Below are positions 11,422 through 47,719 of a stretch of DNA of 64,000 nt, piece after piece. Each line of letters begins with the position of its first letter. Within the stretch, counting starts at the first letter, position 1. The stretch covers positions 46,316 to 110,315 of IMG/VR virus record IMGVR_UViG_3300032326_002451; one strand, written 5' to 3'. The notes beneath the pieces are model-generated. The model was not told where the DNA came from. It saw nothing but the letters and a program-made list of their open reading frames with translations, and searched no databases. This DNA comes from a virus. Made by a program: the position numbers and the translations under genes.

Positions 11422-11454
11422 AATGCCCATGATTATCATGGGCATTCTTGTTTT
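11422..11454 (+). terminator. Perfect 12-bp inverted repeat AATGCCCATGAT-T-ATCATGGGCATT followed by CTTGTTTT; terminator or operator
   Basis: Directly visible; lies after the dnaJ operon and just upstream of the helicase -10 box. Confidence 0.6.
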
Positions 11455-11470: not shown

Positions 11471-13279
11471 ATGTTTATTGTTTATGTTTACAATGATAAA
11501 TCAGTGGTATTCAATGACCAACATCCTCAAGGTAAGCTTGAAAACATGTATCAAGAGGCATTGCGATCTGAACTTGCATATGATGTTCCTGATGCAGAGT
11601 GGAGTGCCAAGTTTAAACAAGGTCAATGGGATGGAAAGATTTCCATATACAATAAGCGTGACCAATCATTTCCTACAGGCTTAACTAATAAGGTTAAAAA
11701 ATTATTTGATCTATTGAACATTGACTATAAATTTGTTGATCAAAGACAAAAACCAGATGAGAATTATCCTGTAGATGTAGATTTTGGTGGCAAAGAGCTT
11801 AGAGATTACCAATTGAGTTCTGGTGTGTTGTCAAAAAAGTTTCAGCGAGGCATGTTAGCTTTATGTACTGGAGCTGGAAAAACTATGACTTCGTGCCAAA
11901 TATTTAAGGATTTGGCTGTATCTCCAGTTGTTTTTATTGTTCCAGCCATTGAATTATTGAAACAAACTCAAAAAGAATTTGAAAAATATCTTAGGCTTAA
12001 TGGAAGTCCTGTCAAGGTTGGAATAGCTGGCGGTGGGCTATGCAACATAAATATGCAAGGTATTAATGTTATTACATACCAAACTGCCTTGAATTCTCAT
12101 AACAAAAAATATGTTGAACGTGGCAATAAAATTATAGAAGATGAAAGTGGCGATGGTCAATCTAAATCTACAGCCCAGTTGCAAGCTGAATACGATCTTG
12201 CTGAAAAAAACTGGAAGAATAAACATGAACAAGCTAAAAAACAATTAGCAAAAGATTTAGTTGTTATTAAAAATCTCAAGATTGATTTGGAAAATGAATC
12301 AGATTTACGAAAGAAAAAATCACTTTCTGTATGCTTAACAAATTTAGAGAAAGTATATGAAAAGCAACTTAACACAATAACAAAAGTTGAACTTACTGCA
12401 TACAAAAAAGCTCAAGTTGCTTGGGACAAAAGACAAGATACATTATTTCAAAAATCTCTTGTAAGAGAAGTTATATCCAATTGTCAAGCTTTTATTGTAG
12501 ACGAAGCTCATGTTGCATCTGTTGTTATAGAAGAATTAGGTAGATATGCTAAAAATGCTTTCTATAAACTTGGACTTTCAGGCACTCCATGGAGAACAGA
12601 TAATCAGGAAATAAGAATTGAAGGCGCTTTAGGTAGAAAAATAATTCAAGTTTCTGCAAGTGATCTTATAGAAAGAGGTTTTCTTGTTCCTCCAAAGATA
12701 TTTATATGCAAGATAAACGAACAGCATCATGCAAATACTTATCCTGAAATATATACTTCTAATATAGTAAACAATTGGGAAAGAAATTTCAGAATTAAAC
12801 AATTTTCTGAGCAATTCAAATTAAAAGGAAGGCCGACATTAATTCTTGTTGAAAGAAGAGAGCATGGAGCCATTCTTGAAAGCATGATAGAAGATGCAGT
12901 TTTCGTGCCTGGAGGAGATAAAGGTGAAGAAGACCCAACAGACGAGGAAAAGAATTACAGAAGACGGATGCTTAATGCTGTGGAAAACAATGAGATTATC
13001 CTCATTGCTACTCAATGGGCTAATGTAGGTGTCGATGCTCCAAGGATCAGTTGCTTAGTTTTGGCTGGCTCTAATCAATCTTCTGTCACAACATATCAGC
13101 AAGTGGGAAGAGTTCTAAGATGTGTTGGTAAAGATATTGAAGAGTCTATTAAAAACGGAAAGCCTGATGCAATCATTTTAGATTTTTCATCAGACCAGAA
13201 GAATTTGAAAACTCATATTAACATGAGAAAAAAAGTATATAGAAATGAAAGAGCTTGGACTTTGACAGAGCTGAAATAA
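11471..13279 (+). CDS. Superfamily 2 DEAH helicase (UvsW/ResIII-like) with ~130-aa coiled-coil insertion
   Basis: LRDYQ (Q motif), CTGAGKT, DEAH, LSGTPWR, GVDAP, QQVGRVLR. Confidence 0.88.
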   Translation: MFIVYVYNDKSVVFNDQHPQGKLENMYQEALRSELAYDVPDAEWSAKFKQGQWDGKISIYNKRDQSFPTGLTNKVKKLFDLLNIDYKFVDQRQKPDENYPVDVDFGGKELRDYQLSSGVLSKKFQRGMLALCTGAGKTMTSCQIFKDLAVSPVVFIVPAIELLKQTQKEFEKYLRLNGSPVKVGIAGGGLCNINMQGINVITYQTALNSHNKKYVERGNKIIEDESGDGQSKSTAQLQAEYDLAEKNWKNKHEQAKKQLAKDLVVIKNLKIDLENESDLRKKKSLSVCLTNLEKVYEKQLNTITKVELTAYKKAQVAWDKRQDTLFQKSLVREVISNCQAFIVDEAHVASVVIEELGRYAKNAFYKLGLSGTPWRTDNQEIRIEGALGRKIIQVSASDLIERGFLVPPKIFICKINEQHHANTYPEIYTSNIVNNWERNFRIKQFSEQFKLKGRPTLILVERREHGAILESMIEDAVFVPGGDKGEEDPTDEEKNYRRRMLNAVENNEIILIATQWANVGVDAPRISCLVLAGSNQSSVTTYQQVGRVLRCVGKDIEESIKNGKPDAIILDFSSDQKNLKTHINMRKKVYRNERAWTLTELK

Positions 13280-13299
13280 ACTGCTCCATTGCAGTTTAT
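13276..13299. terminator. Hairpin ATAAACTGC-tccatt-GCAGTTTAT between convergent helicase and small peptide ORF
   Basis: 9-bp inverted repeat overlapping the helicase stop codon. Confidence 0.45.
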
Positions 13300-13304
13300 A
13301 AAGA

Positions 13305-13376
13305 TTAGAATTCAGCTTTGAATAATGTTACAAAAATAGTGTCGAACAACTTTTCAATATCTTTCAGAATATTCAT
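13305..13376 (-). CDS. Unannotated 23-aa amphipathic peptide MNILKDIEKLFDTIFVTLFKAEF
   Basis: Read by hand; perfect SD AAGGAGGT 5 nt before ATG; below the ORF-track length cut-off. Confidence 0.6.
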   Translation of the reverse strand: MNILKDIEKLFDTIFVTLFKAEF

Positions 13377-13392
13377 AGATTACCTCCTTGAC

Positions 13393-13431
13393 AAAATAAA
13401 AAACCGCTGACTTAGTTACCATCAGCGGTTT
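13393..13431 (-). terminator. Intrinsic terminator-like hairpin AAACCGCTGA-N11-TCAGCGGTTT + TTTATTTT immediately upstream of the peptide SD
   Basis: 10-bp GC-containing stem followed by U-tract on the minus strand. Confidence 0.65.
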
Positions 13432-13537
13432 CAATTATATTTTACCACTTTTCTCATAAATTTCCCTTTTATAGAATGATTTATGTATATTTTGTCGAAT
13501 AATATATTACAGCACTATAAAGCTGCGGAGGTGAGTT

Positions 13538-13897
13538 ATGTTCCACCAAACTATCGTTGGCAAGCCAAAACATTGTTTGAATAGAAATTGTAAAACTCCT
13601 TTCTTTAAGGAATCTCATTTAGGATGGTTGCCAAAGTCAGAAGTAGAAGTTTATGCAATCATGAGATGCCCAAAATGCAAAGATACATTTGCAGTTGTTC
13701 AATTGATATCTATGGCGCATGATTACAAAACTGCTCTACCAAAAGACCCAAGTCAAGTTTCTCCTTCTGGACCTATAACAAAAAAAGAACTCACGAATTT
13801 CAAAAAGAAACTTGATAACAAAGATTCATTAAAAAGTTTATTAGAAGGATACAAACCTGGAGGGTCTGTTATTTCTGAAGACGACACTGACATCTAA
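13538..13897 (+). CDS. Zn-ribbon-like hypothetical protein
   Basis: CLNRNC and RCPKC pairs; GGAGGTG SD. Confidence 0.65.
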   Translation: MFHQTIVGKPKHCLNRNCKTPFFKESHLGWLPKSEVEVYAIMRCPKCKDTFAVVQLISMAHDYKTALPKDPSQVSPSGPITKKELTNFKKKLDNKDSLKSLLEGYKPGGSVISEDDTDI

Positions 13898-13914: not shown

Positions 13915-15627
13915 ATGAGTATTGCAGTAGGAATAGATTTAGGTAGTACATTTAGCGTAGTTTCTTATGTAAAAGCAGATGGAAGTATTGAGGTAATTCC
14001 TAATTCAGAAGGAAACCGCATTACACCATCTGTTTTTGCAATTGATGACCAGTCGCAAATTATGATTGGCGATTTGGCTTCAGAATACGAATTAGTTTAT
14101 CCGGAAAGAGTTGTTAGATTAGTCAAGAGAAACATGTCTGATGGCATGAATAAAATTTATAATTTTGACAATTTTGTTAATTCAATAAAATTATCTCCTT
14201 GCGAAATATCTTCTGAAATATTAAAGAAACTTAAAAAAGATACAGAAGATTATTTAGGAGAAGAAATTAAAGAAGCTGTGATTACAGTGCCAGCTTATTT
14301 TAATAACAGTGAAAGAGAAGCAACAAAAGCCGCTGGAGAATTGGCAGGGCTGAAAGTTCTAAGAATTATCAATGAGCCTACTGCAGCATCTTTAGCTTAT
14401 GGTCTTGATAAGAACAATGATTCGACAATCTTGGTATACGACCTTGGCGGGGGTACTTTTGATGTTACTGTACTTAAGCTATCTGATGGTTGTGATTTTC
14501 ATGTCCTATCAACTTCAGGAGACACAAAACTTGGAGGAGCAGATTTCGATTCTGCTTTAGGAATTATTATTCAAAATAAATTTGGCTTTCATATTGAATC
14601 TTCCGAATTGAGATCTTTAGCTGAAAAAACCAAAAAAATGCTATCACAATTACAAATAGCAAATGTTCGATACGCAGGACAGCAAGTTTCAATAAATAGA
14701 GAAGAATTTGAACAATCAATTGATAGTTTGATTATGGAAACTAAACATTGTATAGATCAAGCCTTGTCTGATGCAAATTTGAGCATAAATGATATAGATG
14801 AGGTGGTTTTTGTAGGTGGATCAACAAGAATCCCATACGTTGCTCAAAAAGTGCAAGAATGGCTAAATAAAAGGCCAAATAAGTCAATCAATCCAGATGA
14901 AGCTGTTTCCGTGGGTGCAGCAATTCAAGCTTCTGTTCTTTCGGGTAATTCAAAAAAAGAAGTTTATTTGTTAGATGTCACTCCATTATCATTAGGAATT
15001 GAAACTCAAGGTGGTTTCATGACAACTATGATCAAGAGAAACACACAAGTGCCTACAGAATTTAAAGAGACTTTTACTACAGCTACTGATAACCAAACAG
15101 AAGTAGATGTCAAGGTCTTTCAGGGCGAAAGACCAAGAGTAATTAATAATCATTTTTTGGGAGAGTTTAATTTAGAAAATATTAATGCAGCACCTCGTGG
15201 AATTCCAAAGATTGATGTTGTTTTTGAGGTTGATGCTAACGGTATTGTGTTTGTCAAAGCAATTGATGAAAACACAAAAGAAGAAAAATCTATGGTTTTG
15301 TCTGGAGCAAGTAGTCTATCAAGCTTAGATGTTAATAAAATGCTTCAAGATGCAGAAGATAATAAAGCCAAGGATGAAAGAGACAGAACCATAAAGAAGT
15401 TGACAGATTATCTCATAGATTGTAAAATTCAAATAACTCATCTTCTGAAGTCTGATATTTTGAATAAATCAGAAATCAATGAACTGATTGACTTAAAAAA
15501 ATCTATTGACAATGATATAAATTCTGAAAATGTAGAATTTTTATCTTCTTTGTCAGAGTCAGCTAAAGATTTGTTAGAAGTTTTATCTGATAAAGTTCAT
15601 GAAGAAGCAAGTAAATTATTATTATGA
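13915..15627 (+). CDS. dnaK: Hsp70/DnaK-family chaperone (divergent)
   Basis: GIDLGST, EGNRITPS, VITVPAYF, NEPTAA, DLGGGTFD, VGGSTRIP, linker YLLDVTPLSLG, QGER, APRGIPKI. Confidence 0.95.
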   Translation: MSIAVGIDLGSTFSVVSYVKADGSIEVIPNSEGNRITPSVFAIDDQSQIMIGDLASEYELVYPERVVRLVKRNMSDGMNKIYNFDNFVNSIKLSPCEISSEILKKLKKDTEDYLGEEIKEAVITVPAYFNNSEREATKAAGELAGLKVLRIINEPTAASLAYGLDKNNDSTILVYDLGGGTFDVTVLKLSDGCDFHVLSTSGDTKLGGADFDSALGIIIQNKFGFHIESSELRSLAEKTKKMLSQLQIANVRYAGQQVSINREEFEQSIDSLIMETKHCIDQALSDANLSINDIDEVVFVGGSTRIPYVAQKVQEWLNKRPNKSINPDEAVSVGAAIQASVLSGNSKKEVYLLDVTPLSLGIETQGGFMTTMIKRNTQVPTEFKETFTTATDNQTEVDVKVFQGERPRVINNHFLGEFNLENINAAPRGIPKIDVVFEVDANGIVFVKAIDENTKEEKSMVLSGASSLSSLDVNKMLQDAEDNKAKDERDRTIKKLTDYLIDCKIQITHLLKSDILNKSEINELIDLKKSIDNDINSENVEFLSSLSESAKDLLEVLSDKVHEEASKLLL

Positions 15628-17662: not shown

Positions 17663-17696
17663 TATATATTTTTTGAAACCTACAGCTTAATCCTTT
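17663..17696 (-). promoter_or_regulatory. Candidate phage late promoter AAAGGA-N19-AAATATATA
   Basis: Recurring fixed-spacing motif (see findings). Confidence 0.55.
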
Positions 17697-27741: not shown

Positions 27742-27781
27742 TATTTAAATTCCTTTTATAAAACTCTTATGTTTTAGTAGA

Positions 27782-27815
27782 TATAATTTTCTATTGATGC
27801 AATGTTTCTTCCTTT
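27782..27815 (-). promoter_or_regulatory. Candidate phage late promoter AAAGGA-N19-AAAATTATA
   Basis: Same motif and spacing; overlaps gyrA 3' end. Confidence 0.55.
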
Positions 27816-30307
27816 GCAATTGTGTTTTCTACAACTACAAGTGTTTGCACTCTGTCTCCGTTATCCAAACCTACTATTTTACTTCCGATAGTAGTCTTTC
27901 CTTTGGATCGAAAATCTTCTACTGACATTCTAACCATTTTTCCTTTCTGAGTTAGAACCAGAAATTCCTTGCCTTCGCTTACTACAGCTGCGCAAACAAT
28001 ATTTCCATTACGAGTTTTCTTTTCTGAATTGATAGTTCTGCTCCCTTTTGCATATCTGCCGGACAAAGATTTATATTCATTAGCATCAGTTTTTTTACCA
28101 AAACCGTTTTCGGTGATGACTAAAATCTCAGAACTTTCATTTCTATCAAGCACAAGCATAGAAACAATTGTGTCATTTTCTTGAAGATTCATGGCACGAA
28201 CGCCTTGTCCAGCCCTACCAATAGACCTTACAATGTCTTCAGAGTACCTTAGAGCATATCCATTTGCAGTAATAAGAGCAATGTCTTTTTCACCGTTTGT
28301 AGTTGAAACATGAACCAAAGAATCGTCTTCATTTAGTGTTAATGCTTTAAGTCCACGCTTACGCAAACTTGTGTTGTACTCTCTTACTTCACTTCTTTTA
28401 ATCAAACCATTTTTAGTTACCATAATGAAGTAAGCATCTACATCTAATGATTTCATTGTGATAGTTGATGCAACGACTTCTTCAGGGGCCAAAGCAAGCA
28501 AATTGGCAGTGTGGATTCCCTTGTTTGTTCTTGAAGACAGAGGTATTTCATATCCCTTTTTCTTTAAAAGATTGCCTTGATTGGTAAAGAAGAGGAACAA
28601 GTCATGTGTCGATCCAACATAAATATCTGCAGCTTCATCTTCTTCACGACCCTTGACTGCAATAACACCTTTTCCGCCCCGACCTTGTGATTTGAAAGTA
28701 TCTAATGGGACACGCTTTATATAGCCATCTTTTGTAAGAGAAACAACAATTTGCTCTTCTGTGATAAGGTCCTCGTAATTGAAATCATCCATTGAAGGGA
28801 CAATCTCGCTACGGCGATCATCACCAAGTTTTTCAGCAATATCAATCTGTTCTTTAGAAATAAGATTTAGCATTTTCTTTTCAGAAGATAATTGAGTTGT
28901 TAGCCATTCGTTTCTTTTAGTAAGCTTAGAAAACTCATCAGCCATTGAGTTGACATCAAGTTTTGTAAGATTGCCTAATGTAATCTTGAGGACAGCATCA
29001 GCTTGTTCTGGTGATTTTACAAATCCTTGTGAGATGAGTTCTTGTTGTGCCACATTCCTATCATCAGCTTCACGGATGAGCTTAATAACCGCATCAATTT
29101 TAGTGGTAATCCCAATGAGGCCATCAAGGATATGGAGTCTTCGATTATTCTTGTCCAGTTCTGCATTGAATTTTCTCGTCAAAACATCTTTTCTGTGATT
29201 TACAAATGTTTCAACCAACTTAATGAGAGGAACATTTTCAACAACCTTCTTACCATCCATTAGTACAGTAGAGTTAACAGAAAAGTTTGTTCTAAGACAT
29301 GTATGCTTCAAAACTAAATTTAAAACTACATTAGTATTAGCTGATTTATGAATCCAAATTCTTACATCCATACCTTTTTTGTTTGTAAGATTTTTAAGGT
29401 TAGTGATACCTTCAATTTTTTTAGATTCAACAAGTTCTTTAATTTCTCGGCAAAATCCCTCAGCAGAACCTCCATATGGAAGAGCTGTTACCTTGATATA
29501 TTGCTGACCATTTTTTTCTGATTCAATAGTATGGTAGCCCTCGAGTTGAACTGAGCCTCTTCCAGTTGTAAAGTAATTCTTTATACCAGTGTTGCCGAGG
29601 ATTTTACAAGGAAGAGGAAAATCTGGGCCTGGAACAATTTCCATAATTTCTTCAACAGTAATTTCTGGATTTTTGATATATGCGTCAATTAGCTTGGCAA
29701 TTTCACGAAGATTGTGAGGTGCCATAGAGGTAGCCCATCCAACAGCAATACCAGAGCATCCATTGACAATCAAGTTTGGAATCAATGATGGAAGAACAGT
29801 GGGCTCCATCAGTTCATCGTTGTAGTTAGAAATGTAATCTACAACTTGATTTGATAACTCAGAAATCATTTGGTCGCCAAACACAGAAAACTTTGCTTCT
29901 GTGTAGCGCATTGCAGCTGGTTTATCTTCTGGCGCAGGAGATCCAAAGTTTCCTTGAGGCGAAATGAGAGGGTAGCGTAAAGACCAATCTTGTGCCATTC
30001 GAACAAGAGTTGGATAAACTACTGCTTCACCATGTGGATGGTAGTTTCCTGATACATCACCGCAAATCTTCGCACATTTCTTTGTCTTACCAGAAGATCT
30101 TAGGTTAAGATCATTCATAGCGACTAAGGTTCTTCTTTGGGATGGCTTTAGGCCATCCCTTGCGTCAGGTAGCGCACGATCTTCCATAACTGCAAAAGCA
30201 TAATTGGTAAATCTGTCATCAATTAGTTCGATAAACTCTTTTTCGATAACATGATCCTGCATAACTTCGAGCGGATTTACTTCTTCAACCTTAGATTTCT
30301 TAGCCAT
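27791..30307 (-). CDS. gyrA: DNA gyrase subunit A
   Basis: RALPDARDGLKP, YHPHGE, QGNFGS, AAMRYTE (catalytic Tyr), GyrA-box QGRGGKG, beta-pinwheel CTD blades. Confidence 0.96.
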   Translation of the reverse strand: MAKKSKVEEVNPLEVMQDHVIEKEFIELIDDRFTNYAFAVMEDRALPDARDGLKPSQRRTLVAMNDLNLRSSGKTKKCAKICGDVSGNYHPHGEAVVYPTLVRMAQDWSLRYPLISPQGNFGSPAPEDKPAAMRYTEAKFSVFGDQMISELSNQVVDYISNYNDELMEPTVLPSLIPNLIVNGCSGIAVGWATSMAPHNLREIAKLIDAYIKNPEITVEEIMEIVPGPDFPLPCKILGNTGIKNYFTTGRGSVQLEGYHTIESEKNGQQYIKVTALPYGGSAEGFCREIKELVESKKIEGITNLKNLTNKKGMDVRIWIHKSANTNVVLNLVLKHTCLRTNFSVNSTVLMDGKKVVENVPLIKLVETFVNHRKDVLTRKFNAELDKNNRRLHILDGLIGITTKIDAVIKLIREADDRNVAQQELISQGFVKSPEQADAVLKITLGNLTKLDVNSMADEFSKLTKRNEWLTTQLSSEKKMLNLISKEQIDIAEKLGDDRRSEIVPSMDDFNYEDLITEEQIVVSLTKDGYIKRVPLDTFKSQGRGGKGVIAVKGREEDEAADIYVGSTHDLFLFFTNQGNLLKKKGYEIPLSSRTNKGIHTANLLALAPEEVVASTITMKSLDVDAYFIMVTKNGLIKRSEVREYNTSLRKRGLKALTLNEDDSLVHVSTTNGEKDIALITANGYALRYSEDIVRSIGRAGQGVRAMNLQENDTIVSMLVLDRNESSEILVITENGFGKKTDANEYKSLSGRYAKGSRTINSEKKTRNGNIVCAAVVSEGKEFLVLTQKGKMVRMSVEDFRSKGKTTIGSKIVGLDNGDRVQTLVVVENTIAKEETLHQ

Positions 30308-32474: not shown

Positions 32475-32503
32475 ATTATACCCAAATTTGCCAAAATAAG
32501 CAA
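32475..32503 (-). promoter_or_regulatory. Sigma70-type promoter for gyrBA: TTGCTT-N17-TATAAT
   Basis: Near-consensus boxes with 17-bp spacer; followed by hairpin GCTGTG...CACAGC. Confidence 0.7.
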
Positions 32504-45257: not shown

Positions 45258-46601
45258 ATGACAAAAAGAAAGAATCAAATTGTTTGTGTTTTTTGTGGAG
45301 ACAACGCTTCAAGACAAATAGCAGAAAAATTGGAATATTTCTCACCTAAAAACCGTGATGTTTATTTATGCGAAAAGTGTTTTAATAGTTTTTCAGCCGG
45401 GACTGTTATGGGGCAGTTCCAATTAAATAATAAAATTTTATCTTTGATTGCCTCTGTAGATGACGATGAAACAGTTACAAATTTAAAAAATAAAATTGCT
45501 GAATATGCTCCTGCTTCAAAATACTCTGTAGCAAAACAAACTATGTCCAGGGCTAAAATCGCTCCTACAGACATTTATGATTTTTTGTGCACTAATGTTA
45601 TCGGTCAAGAAAATGCAAAGAAGAAAATTTCTCTAACTGTTTATGAGCATGTCAGAAATGCTTATAAATCAGATTTAAATGACAAACATAATATTTTATT
45701 TTTAGGTCCATCTGGCAGTGGAAAAACTTTAATAGTGAATAGCATTGCTAAAAAGTTAGATGTACCATATGTTTCCACCGATGCCACTTCTTTTTCGCCT
45801 ACTGGATTTCAAGGAGCTGATGCAGATACCTGTATACACGACTTGTACTTCAAATCAGATTATGATTCAGATTTAGCTCAAAAGGGTGTAGTGTTCATAG
45901 ATGAGATAGATAAGTTAGCATCTCAGAATACAGGAACAAGATTAGAAAGTTTTAATTATTCAACTCAGAGCACCTTGTTGAAAATGATTGAAGGTAAAAA
46001 AATAAAGATACCTGCCCAGTTGACGGGTGATGCTCCTGGCCCTGTGTATGTTGATACTTCTAAAATATTGTTCTGGTTTGGTGGTGCTTTCAATGGGCTT
46101 GAGAATGTAATAGGTAAAAAACAAGGATTTTCTGGCAAATCAATTGGTTTTAGAAATAATGGTGATGAAGAATACGATATCAAAATGAGAATTTATGATA
46201 TGTATCAAAATCTTTCTCAAGATGTTTTGGCAGAAAGTTTAATCGAATATGGCCTGTCAACTGAACTTGTTGGAAGAATTCAAACTATTGTACCATTGAG
46301 GCCATTAAACAAAGAAGAATTGCTTTCATGCCTTTTGAGTCTTGCAGATAGTCCTATTAGAAAAAATAAAATCATGTTTGCAGAATCTAATTTGGAACTT
46401 GATTTTACTGAAGACTACTATGATGAAGTAATTGAGAAAGCGGTAAAAACTGGTACAGGGGTAAGAGCTTTGAATTCTATTGTTAAGTCTTCTTTGTCCA
46501 GTGCTGCTTTTCAATATTTAGGATTGCAGACAGTCAAGTCAAAGCGAATTATTATCAACAAAGATTGTGTTGATGATCCCAATAAGTTTGATGTCTTTTA
46601 A
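45258..46601 (+). CDS. clpX: ClpX-family AAA+ unfoldase
   Basis: N-terminal C4 Zn domain (CVFCG...LCEKC), VIGQENAK, GPSGSGKT, FIDEIDK, IGF loop, ELVGRI, GTGVRAL. Confidence 0.92.
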   Translation: MTKRKNQIVCVFCGDNASRQIAEKLEYFSPKNRDVYLCEKCFNSFSAGTVMGQFQLNNKILSLIASVDDDETVTNLKNKIAEYAPASKYSVAKQTMSRAKIAPTDIYDFLCTNVIGQENAKKKISLTVYEHVRNAYKSDLNDKHNILFLGPSGSGKTLIVNSIAKKLDVPYVSTDATSFSPTGFQGADADTCIHDLYFKSDYDSDLAQKGVVFIDEIDKLASQNTGTRLESFNYSTQSTLLKMIEGKKIKIPAQLTGDAPGPVYVDTSKILFWFGGAFNGLENVIGKKQGFSGKSIGFRNNGDEEYDIKMRIYDMYQNLSQDVLAESLIEYGLSTELVGRIQTIVPLRPLNKEELLSCLLSLADSPIRKNKIMFAESNLELDFTEDYYDEVIEKAVKTGTGVRALNSIVKSSLSSAAFQYLGLQTVKSKRIIINKDCVDDPNKFDVF

Positions 46602-46633
46602 AGGATTTGCCTACCTTAAATATAAAATATATA
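46600..46633 (+). promoter_or_regulatory. Candidate phage late promoter AAAGGA-N19-AAATATATA
   Basis: Identical boxes and spacing to the 17663-17696 site. Confidence 0.55.
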
Positions 46634-46636
46634 AGT

Positions 46637-47719
46637 ATGCATTATCAAAATCCCGAAAACCTAATACAACAAGCCTTGGAAATTCATAAAGAAAATACAA
46701 GGCTTGTTCGTTTAGCTGCACCACCAGCAGATTATAATTTTTGCGATCAGTGGTTTCAGCTACAAACCAATCCTGAAATGATAAGACTTAAAGCCACATT
46801 AGCTTTTATGCCAGCAAGAGGATTTGTTAGATGGTGGTCAGAGTTATATAATGCTACAGACAGAATTAGAGAAATTAGAAGTATTTTTGATACTGATATA
46901 GTGCCAAATGAAACCTTGAGAGAGTTTGGATTAGATCGAAGCTATGCTAACTTTCCCTTTGATTCCACTCATCCTAATGGCATAGACCCAGCGGTTTGGC
47001 AAAGAATAGATGACAAATTAAATTTATTGTGTCGATATTTATTTGTATGGACATTCCGTGTAGCAATGGCTGGAGATACAGCAAACTACACAAGATTTTT
47101 GAGAGACTATCCCGATCCAAATGTTTCTCAAGCACAACCACTAACACCAGAAATCAAACTTGATCAACTTATAGAAAAGAAAATACCTAATGATTTGTTA
47201 AAAGAATATAAAATTAACAAGCCAAATGCTGCGTATATAGATTCATTGCCATATATAAAAAATGAAGTAACTAAATTCTTTTTAAACTCATTTCCTTTCG
47301 ACCAAGATGGAAATATAGCCAGAAGTCATTTTTTGAAAAAAATGCCAGCCAAGCGTTTTAATTTTGATGAATATTGGAATTCATTGATGGGTATGTATTC
47401 AAATGTTGATGAAATAAGAAATGTACTTGATTCTGATGTTACTTTAGATACTTCATCAGGTGGTCCTGCTGCTTCAAAATTGAAAGAATTAGGAACAATT
47501 TCAGGATCTTCAAATGCAAATGTTGATGATATTCATGCAAAATTAGAGCAATTGATCAATTCTATCAGAGTACATGAAGTTAATAGTTTGAAAGAAAGAT
47601 GGGTGAAAATATTTGGCGGATTGTCAAAAGTTACTAAGCCATTCCTTGATGTATATCAAACATCATTAAATTTGCAAGGAGCATTAGGGTCATCTTTGAG
47701 GAGAGATAGATATGTCTAA
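46637..47719 (+). CDS. Hypothetical helical protein with RLVRLA-A leader (candidate head-internal/ejected protein)
   Basis: ATG 46637 directly after the promoter motif is preferred over TTG 46607. Confidence 0.6.
   Translation: MHYQNPENLIQQALEIHKENTRLVRLAAPPADYNFCDQWFQLQTNPEMIRLKATLAFMPARGFVRWWSELYNATDRIREIRSIFDTDIVPNETLREFGLDRSYANFPFDSTHPNGIDPAVWQRIDDKLNLLCRYLFVWTFRVAMAGDTANYTRFLRDYPDPNVSQAQPLTPEIKLDQLIEKKIPNDLLKEYKINKPNAAYIDSLPYIKNEVTKFFLNSFPFDQDGNIARSHFLKKMPAKRFNFDEYWNSLMGMYSNVDEIRNVLDSDVTLDTSSGGPAASKLKELGTISGSSNANVDDIHAKLEQLINSIRVHEVNSLKERWVKIFGGLSKVTKPFLDVYQTSLNLQGALGSSLRRDRYV

Follow-up and report, generated by a model that had tools for sequence, protein, structure and literature searches.

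A hidden gene of 23 codons lies on the minus strand of the window (the whole 64,000-nt stretch analysed here, positions 46,316 to 110,315 of the IMG/VR virus record IMGVR_UViG_3300032326_002451), in the 258 nt that separate a UvsW-like helicase gene from a gene for a 119-amino-acid (aa) protein, both of which are located on the opposite strand. We consider it almost certain that this small open reading frame (micro-ORF) is a real protein-coding gene under purifying selection. On the minus strand it is preceded by an extended −10 element, a leader hairpin with a U-run, and a Shine-Dalgarno (SD) sequence, and it is followed by a second hairpin; all of these elements, which a model had described from the sequence alone (hereafter, the original prediction), were found in place (Table 1). 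For the arrangement as a whole, we give about an even chance to a composite reading, in which a real gene would be combined with a leaky terminator close to the promoter, formed by the leader hairpin.

Conservation and Coding Potential of the Micro-ORF

Relatives were fetched from IMG/VR and from metagenome contigs by anchoring first on the helicase and then on the 119-aa protein, which yielded 18 viral and 69 metagenome contigs with helicases that were 59–83% identical. The micro-ORF was detected by a peptide profile in 84 of 100 loci; after removal of duplicates, 47 cassette versions, 43 ORF sequences, and 36 peptides (22–24 aa), all distinct, were available for comparison. Each of the 43 ORF versions is open in the sense frame; no other frame is open in more than 15, and translation would start at ATG or GTG (two of the peptides with GTG). 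Column entropy is 21.2, 8.9, and 28.1 for codon positions 1, 2, and 3, respectively, which represents a coding pattern (3 > 1 > 2). Within clades, the proportion of nonsynonymous differences (pN) was 0.04–0.15 as compared to 0.4–0.8 for synonymous differences (pS), i.e., a pN/pS of approximately 0.06–0.2 with synonymous sites near saturation. When seven independent within-clade pairs were pooled, 46 of 77 changes were synonymous (31 nonsynonymous), as compared to 18% expected (binomial p = 3e-16); the window and L016, for example, differ by eight synonymous and two nonsynonymous changes in this ORF. Among all pairs, pN/pS was 0.55 in frame versus 0.73 and 2.0 in the shifted frames. The core of the SD is found in all 47 cassette versions, 4–9 nt ahead of the start codon. 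The exclusive open frame, the codon entropy, the synonymous excess, and the conserved SD thus together indicate that the hidden ORF is real, and the 23-aa gene claimed by the original prediction is well supported, in particular by the 43 ORF versions and their pN/pS. Conservation of the ORF and, with covariation, of the leader hairpin was looked for in the related contigs and was found for both.

The micro-gene is present as a single copy, with no paralogue in the genome. A search with the back-translated peptide alignment recovered only the closest relative, its confirmation step being too weak for a peptide of 23 aa. With 72 nt, the gene is shorter than standard gene callers accept, which explains why the family is absent from annotation and protein databases. 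It is nevertheless among the most tightly conserved features of the window in uncultured aquatic phages that make up a widespread group with genomes of about 100 kb; the contigs come from lakes and marine sites. These genes represent a new family of phage micro-proteins with compact expression signals, and they exemplify, cleanly and with good support, a phage micro-protein whose expression signals are complete, compact, and directly synthesisable.

The cassette lies directly against the 3′ end of the helicase gene in all 16 helicase-anchored loci that reach past the helicase stop codon. Its neighbour on the other side varies; in most loci this is the 119-aa protein gene, while L051 carries an inserted gene for a 435-aa protein on the plus strand. 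Promoter and leader hairpin are kept in loci that have another gene upstream (L048, L051, L052, and L065). This pattern shows that the predicted −10, leader hairpin, U-run, SD, ORF, and downstream hairpin form one jointly inherited cassette.

Table 1. Predicted elements of the micro-gene cassette and neighbouring genes. Positions refer to the window unless a locus is named.
Feature	Position	Strand	Evidence or remark
A-rich AAGG(G) box, possible −35-like or phage-specific upstream promoter element	13464..13468	−	~20 nt upstream of −10
Candidate extended −10, TGGTAAAAT (TG extension)	13439..13447	−	near-invariant in relatives
Second TATAAT, overlapping TGGTAAAAT	13439-13434	−	
Leader stem-loop with intrinsic-terminator anatomy	13400..13432	−	fold and covariation; predicted start at or within 1–3 nt of transcription start
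U-run, directly after and partly within 3′ arm	13393..13403	−	T count
SD, AAGGAGG	13383..13389	−	anti-SD pairing
23-codon ORF (plus stop), amphipathic, mildly acidic peptide	13305..13376	−	conservation, pN/pS, exclusive open frame
Downstream hairpin, putative convergent terminator shared with helicase gene	13276..13299	−	7–10 nt past ORF stop
UvsW-like helicase gene	11471-13279	+	
Gene for 119-aa four-cysteine (zinc-ribbon) protein	13538-13897	+	
Hsp70 gene	13915-15627	+	
Accessory gene for 241–247-aa protein	L002:5802-6542	−	homologues in L001, L003, L066-L075

Leader Hairpin and U-Run

The leader hairpin has a core of 10 Watson-Crick base pairs (13431–13422 with 13410–13401), to which wobble pairs are added; across versions, the stem comprises 10–14 bp with a stability of −12 to −27 kcal/mol. 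The 181-nt stretch that was folded is more stable than its shuffled versions (z = −3.07). In an alignment of 30 distinct leaders (alignment A3), the 11 proposed pairs are paired in 96.9% of cases and six of them show changes on both sides; this covariation was reached by no shuffle, and the slid-partner controls all paired at ≤54%. Pairs 42-59 and 44-57 are G-U in three and five sequences, respectively, at which the plus strand would have A-C mismatches. Since G-U pairs are possible on the minus strand only, the constraint acts on the minus-strand RNA. The motif of this hairpin is found a single time in each genome and locus; in the whole 110-kb genome, the hairpin is one of approximately seven strong hairpin-plus-U sites, the others being located at gene ends. 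A simple terminator scan, in which the loop was limited to 8 nt, missed the leader hairpin because its loop exceeds this limit. No Rfam family matched at the gathering score, and relaxed E-values returned only sub-threshold, terminator-driven noise.

The 12 nt that follow the GC core contain a mean of 8.1 T as compared to a genome mean of 4.0, and only 2% of the 12-mers in the genome have at least eight. The U-run is present in all 39 hairpin-bearing versions, and it stays beside the hairpin where the SD sits 17–23 nt off (L043, L004, L058, and L049). Stem and U-run thus make up one unit with the anatomy of a rho-independent terminator, i.e., a GC-rich stem-loop followed by a U-run on the transcribed strand. 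No antiterminator fold or sensor, as would define an attenuator, is evident in the leader, where the −10 is just 7–12 nt from the stem.

Putative Promoter, Upstream Box, and SD

In an alignment of 25 clade representatives (alignment A4), the sequence GTATAAT, GTATACT, or GTAAAAT is near-invariant at the −10 position, which is always located 7–12 nt upstream of the hairpin base; read on the plus strand, the same site is not conserved, and no conserved plus-strand promoter was seen inside the cassette. Most clades of this alignment also carry A(A/G)G at the position of the upstream box, and the box is kept in the clade that has no leader hairpin (see below). Two other readings of this region were tried and rejected. 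The hairpin loop was considered as the true −10, with the palindrome as an operator, and this was ruled out by the loops of several clades, which are not −10-like, and by the G-U pairs, which indicate RNA. The U-run was considered as a −7 box of the Bacteroidetes type (TAnnTTTG) and was also ruled out, as this motif fits less than half of the versions and does not fit the window.

In the window, several genes, the micro-gene included, are preceded by an AAAGG(A/G) box and, 17–19 nt downstream of it, an A-rich −10-like hexamer; the sites are 17668–17696 (minus), 46600–46628 (plus), 27775–27820 (minus), and 13439–13469 (minus). Box and hexamer possibly represent a phage-specific promoter class.

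The duplex between the SD of the micro-gene and the anti-SD has a predicted free energy of −12.7 kcal/mol, and the SD is unpaired in the predicted fold. In a survey of the genome that covered ORFs of at least 80 codons at their first start codon, approximately 10% reached −8 kcal/mol or better and 19% reached −6 kcal/mol or better; the description of this SD as one of the strongest in the window is therefore borne out. Many starts in the genome are preceded by A-rich sequence. The few genes with a strong SD include, besides the micro-gene, the 119-aa protein gene (13538), the ORFs at 47700 and 50149, and a PhoH-like gene (39596). The sparse use of SD sequences may reflect the host or a special translation class.

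Downstream Hairpin, Clades without a Leader Hairpin, and Other Terminators

The downstream hairpin is found in 40 of the 47 versions and occurs as two main stem variants that are two compensating pairs apart, with variable loops. The helicase stop codon (13277–13279, plus) is located inside its stem. On the minus strand, the hairpin is always followed by a U-rich tail, which at the same time is the end of the helicase reading frame; on the plus strand, a T-run follows it in some relatives only (L004 and L016). The downstream hairpin is thus most simply read as a convergent terminator that would be at least partly bidirectional.

One clade (L001–L003, L066–L075, and L098) keeps the AAGG box, the extended −10, the SD, and the ORF, and has neither the leader hairpin nor the downstream hairpin; a 5-bp stem without a U-run follows the −10 instead. 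In this clade, a gene for a protein of 241–247 aa starts 2 nt past the micro-ORF stop and is inserted between the micro-ORF and the helicase gene. The loss of both hairpins where a second gene needs to be co-transcribed fits a role of the hairpins in limiting transcription. The leader hairpin is also absent in L093. These exceptions argue that the peptide can be expressed without a leader hairpin. The product of the 247-aa gene had no sequence match in Pfam, PHROG, NCBIfam, or PDB; its AlphaFold model is poor (predicted local distance difference test score, 55), and the N-terminal half of this model gave weak matches to Rossmann or GT-A-like folds.

Two further sites with a terminator close to expression signals were noted in the same genome. 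Upstream of the gyrase B-like gene (minus), a near-consensus σ70-type promoter was found (TTGCTT at 32503, a 17-nt spacer, and TATAAT at 32480–32475), the −10 of which reaches into the 5′ arm of a hairpin with a U-run, a strong terminator (32477–32450). Transcripts arriving from upstream would terminate at this hairpin, and those from the gyrase promoter itself would start inside the arm and escape. The true start of the gyrase B-like gene is likely ATG 32426, which is preceded by AAGGAAG, rather than the listed GTG 32471. The other site (C1:15150–15223, minus, outside the window) has an AAGG box near the end of the upstream gene, a strong terminator hairpin with U8, and directly after this an SD and an ATG; it is the second site of the genome with a terminator immediately before an SD.

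Proposed Expression of the Micro-Gene

In the composite reading, the cassette would be a self-contained transcription unit of ~170 nt, placed antisense, with the helicase gene on one side and the genes for the zinc-ribbon protein and Hsp70 on the other. Transcription would start ~7 nt past the −10, at the foot of the hairpin, a position that leaves no room for a competing antiterminator fold. Each transcript would open with the GC-rich stem, followed by the U-run, i.e., with a promoter-proximal intrinsic terminator. Most polymerases would probably stop at the U-run and release a hairpin RNA of ~35–45 nt; the odds lean slightly toward substantial termination here, which is expected because a GC-rich stem of 10–14 bp stands directly before six to eight U. 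The read-through fraction would give a short mRNA, with the same hairpin as its 5′ cap and the shared terminator as its 3′ end, which would be efficiently translated from the very strong SD and whose 5′ end would also be protected by the leader stem. The net effect would be that a stable message is supplied in throttled amounts, possibly gated by a factor. That termination at the leader hairpin is actively regulated seems rather unlikely to us.

The order of promoter and close intrinsic terminator recalls lambdoid late control, in which transcripts from the PR′ promoter end at tR′ as a short 6S RNA and the downstream gene needs read-through mediated by the antiterminator Q. The likeness would be limited to this order; the terminator of the cassette is located at about +1 rather than at about +190, and what lies behind it is a single gene of 23 codons, closed in turn by a second terminator. 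No candidate for a Q-like protein, a Q-binding element, or a conserved promoter-proximal pause element was noted. Two variants with a more specific function, a promoter-coupled gate and a dual-output locus, appear unlikely. As a gate, the hairpin would keep the micro-gene silent until a phage factor makes polymerase that started from the AAGG box and −10 resistant to the terminator at a set time; in a dual-output locus, the U-tailed hairpin RNA of 35–45 nt would have a function of its own beside the peptide, e.g., titration of an RNA chaperone. If either were true, a terminator at +1 without a sensor RNA would constitute a minimal regulatory design, and we know of no description of such a terminator in phages. 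The compact arrangement of promoter, +1 terminator, and SD is suited to asking whether such hairpins throttle, time, or stabilise expression.

Several points weigh against a throttling terminator. The leader hairpin is absent in eight of the 47 cassette versions, and, with two clades lacking it, it is not obligatory; of the gating by a terminator that the original prediction proposed, the anatomy (conserved stem, U-run, and covariation) holds, and attenuated expression would be a plausible reading of it. Several relatives carry a second −10-like hexamer nearer to the hairpin, from which the RNA would start inside the 5′ arm, so that the stem would be weakened or abolished; the gyrase promoter overlaps a terminator in just the way proposed for these second hexamers. 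The start site is deduced from the position of the −10 only, and the promoter rules of the host are uncertain, most genes having no SD. Moreover, an mRNA that opens with a hairpin, continues with an A/U-rich stretch, and has a strong SD would be expected to be very stable and highly translated, the reverse of attenuation.

It is on this last point that the leader hairpin could be read as mainly a 5′ stabiliser, protecting the mRNA against RNases that depend on the 5′ end, with the U-run as an A/U-rich translation enhancer and the whole arrangement serving maximal expression. We regard this account, the main rival of the composite reading, as possible, if doubtful; it fits the observations almost as well as attenuation does. 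Stabilisation of short mRNAs by 5′ stem-loops is established for ompA, aprE, and ermC, and the leaders of these genes and of the SP82 early RNA share with the cassette a stable 5′-terminal stem, a single-stranded stretch, and a strong SD. Consistent with such a role, the hairpin begins at the predicted +1, the unpaired SD is among the strongest in an SD-poor genome, and the clade without the hairpin keeps its small 5-bp stem right after the −10. However, those leaders are not known to carry a conserved U-run and are not terminator-like. A stabiliser needs no U-run, yet every hairpin-bearing version has one, and where the spacing grows the U-run tracks the hairpin and not the SD. A stem and U-run of this kind would, in addition, be expected to terminate bacterial RNA polymerase regardless of any stabilising effect. 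A quite unlikely alternative to both termination of its own transcript and stabilisation is that the hairpin acts as an insulator and terminates other transcripts, either minus-strand read-through from upstream or plus-strand read-through that leaves the helicase gene and heads for the promoter of the 119-aa protein gene, and that its place after the cassette promoter is incidental. The site is indeed at a divergent or convergent junction, the first hairpin past the helicase stop is weak on the plus strand in many relatives, and an overlapping terminator and promoter are used at the gyrase gene of the same genome. Most versions, however, have no upstream minus-strand gene, and the hairpin stays 7–12 nt from the cassette −10 whatever the upstream neighbour, which argues against it being the end of another transcript; on the plus strand, no U-rich tail follows the stem and the positions of the G-U pairs become A-C mismatches. 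The proposal that the locus is a gene for a non-coding RNA, either a short hairpin RNA or an RNA antisense to the 3′ end of the helicase gene, with an incidental ORF, is very improbable. A promoter with an immediate terminator would by itself yield a hairpin RNA of ~40 nt, and a transcript that ran past the second hairpin would be complementary to the helicase mRNA; the strong purifying selection at the amino-acid level, the exclusive open frame, and the conservation of start codon, SD, and ORF length all speak against it, as does the lack of an Rfam match, and as a sole function a non-coding RNA appears largely refuted.

Properties and Possible Role of the Peptide

In all clades, the peptide has hydrophobic residues at positions 3, 4, 7, 10, 11, 14, 15, 18, and 19, as listed in the original prediction, and Glu8 and Phe19 are invariant (alignment A1). 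The hydrophobic moment at 100 degrees has a mean of 0.45 (range, 0.39–0.60; z of approximately 2–3.6 versus shuffled sequences), and at most 5% of the shuffles match the observed moment, in agreement with the amphipathic character that had been proposed. The net charge ranges from 0 to −3, with no peptide positively charged, and the longest stretch without a charged or strongly polar residue is six to seven residues. The peptide is predicted to form one full-length amphipathic helix with a wide apolar face; with so short an apolar run, it would have no membrane-spanning segment. None of nine scanned peptides matched any Pfam family at E-values of up to 10, and the PHROG search gave no significant match (best E of ~0.07–0.09).

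According to the original prediction, the peptide would be membrane-active, similar to PSM/delta-toxin (phenol-soluble modulin) or type I toxin peptides, with its expression attenuated by the terminator, and would serve lysis timing or superinfection exclusion. We consider such a toxin-like role unlikely. Some amphipathic peptides of 22–24 aa lyse membranes, and the peptide resembles PSM/delta-toxin in that it falls in the range of 20–26 residues, has no signal sequence, and is predicted to be helical and amphipathic over its full length; the expression signals are tight, as would suit a toxin. This part of the comparison, amphipathicity and length, stands, while a Pfam match that would back it is lacking; there is no sequence relationship to PSM/delta-toxin, the gene is a phage gene with no dedicated exporter nearby, and the peptide is acidic rather than neutral or cationic. 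It is thus unlike cationic lytic peptides. Like the units of type I toxins (TisB, Hok, Ibs, Fst, and AapA1), the cassette combines a tiny ORF, a promoter of its own, and a structured leader; unlike those systems, it has no hydrophobic transmembrane segment, no evident gene for an antisense antitoxin RNA, and no occlusion of the SD, so that the likeness to type I toxins was not upheld. An RNA antisense to the cassette might be supplied by transcription that continues past the helicase gene. Lysis timing and superinfection exclusion likewise found no support; the gene is located in a neighbourhood of replication and chaperone genes with no holin or endolysin nearby.

We give roughly even chances to the peptide acting by docking its apolar face on a protein partner or by self-association at a surface, in preference to membrane damage, which we regard as rather improbable; this preference is based on the neighbours being replication and chaperone genes and not lysis genes. 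One of the small phage effectors that bind proteins of the host or the phage is T4 Stp (26 aa). According to Kerr et al. (2007), as cited in PMC5180179, the small helical protein UvsW.1 of T4 is encoded beside uvsW. Small proteins of phages are by now recognised as abundant, and they frequently work through binding to a host or phage protein (reviewed in PMC11323111). The micro-gene may be compared with UvsW.1 in that both specify a very small, helical phage product (predicted here) beside a UvsW-type helicase gene; it differs from UvsW.1 and Stp in showing no sequence similarity, is on the opposite strand, and is three times shorter than UvsW.1. Its constant pairing with a UvsW-type helicase gene provides a hint as to where a partner of the peptide could be sought.

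Genomic Context and Neighbouring Genes

The window represents the last 64 kb of a single contig of 110,315 bp with 33% G+C, a phage-like genome of 110 kb. Its predicted products include giant proteins, serine proteases, DnaJ, the UvsW-like helicase, the 119-aa protein, Hsp70, gyrase-like topoisomerase subunits, and PhoH. No DNA match to cultured relatives was found in the phage collection, in which the helicase matched at <30% identity. Scans of genome contigs identified no cassette-bearing relative and no clue to the host, the only match being Hsp70 (47%) in a Bacteroidetes metagenome-assembled genome.

The 119-aa protein gene always precedes the phage Hsp70 gene. Its product has a mean column identity of 84% and four invariant cysteines (positions 13, 18, 44, and 47), and no family match was found for it in Pfam, PHROG, or NCBIfam. 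A small stem-loop is located immediately 5′ of the SD of this gene (13509–13537, plus); the window and L016 have the same stem with a changed loop, and another clade has a different, longer stem at this place. On the 5′ side of the helicase gene, a terminator hairpin (11422–11446, plus) follows a gene for a 148-aa protein, and is itself followed by TGATATAAT. The helicase ATG (11471) is located just 6 nt past the −10 of TGATATAAT and has no SD, which suggests that the helicase mRNA may be leaderless.

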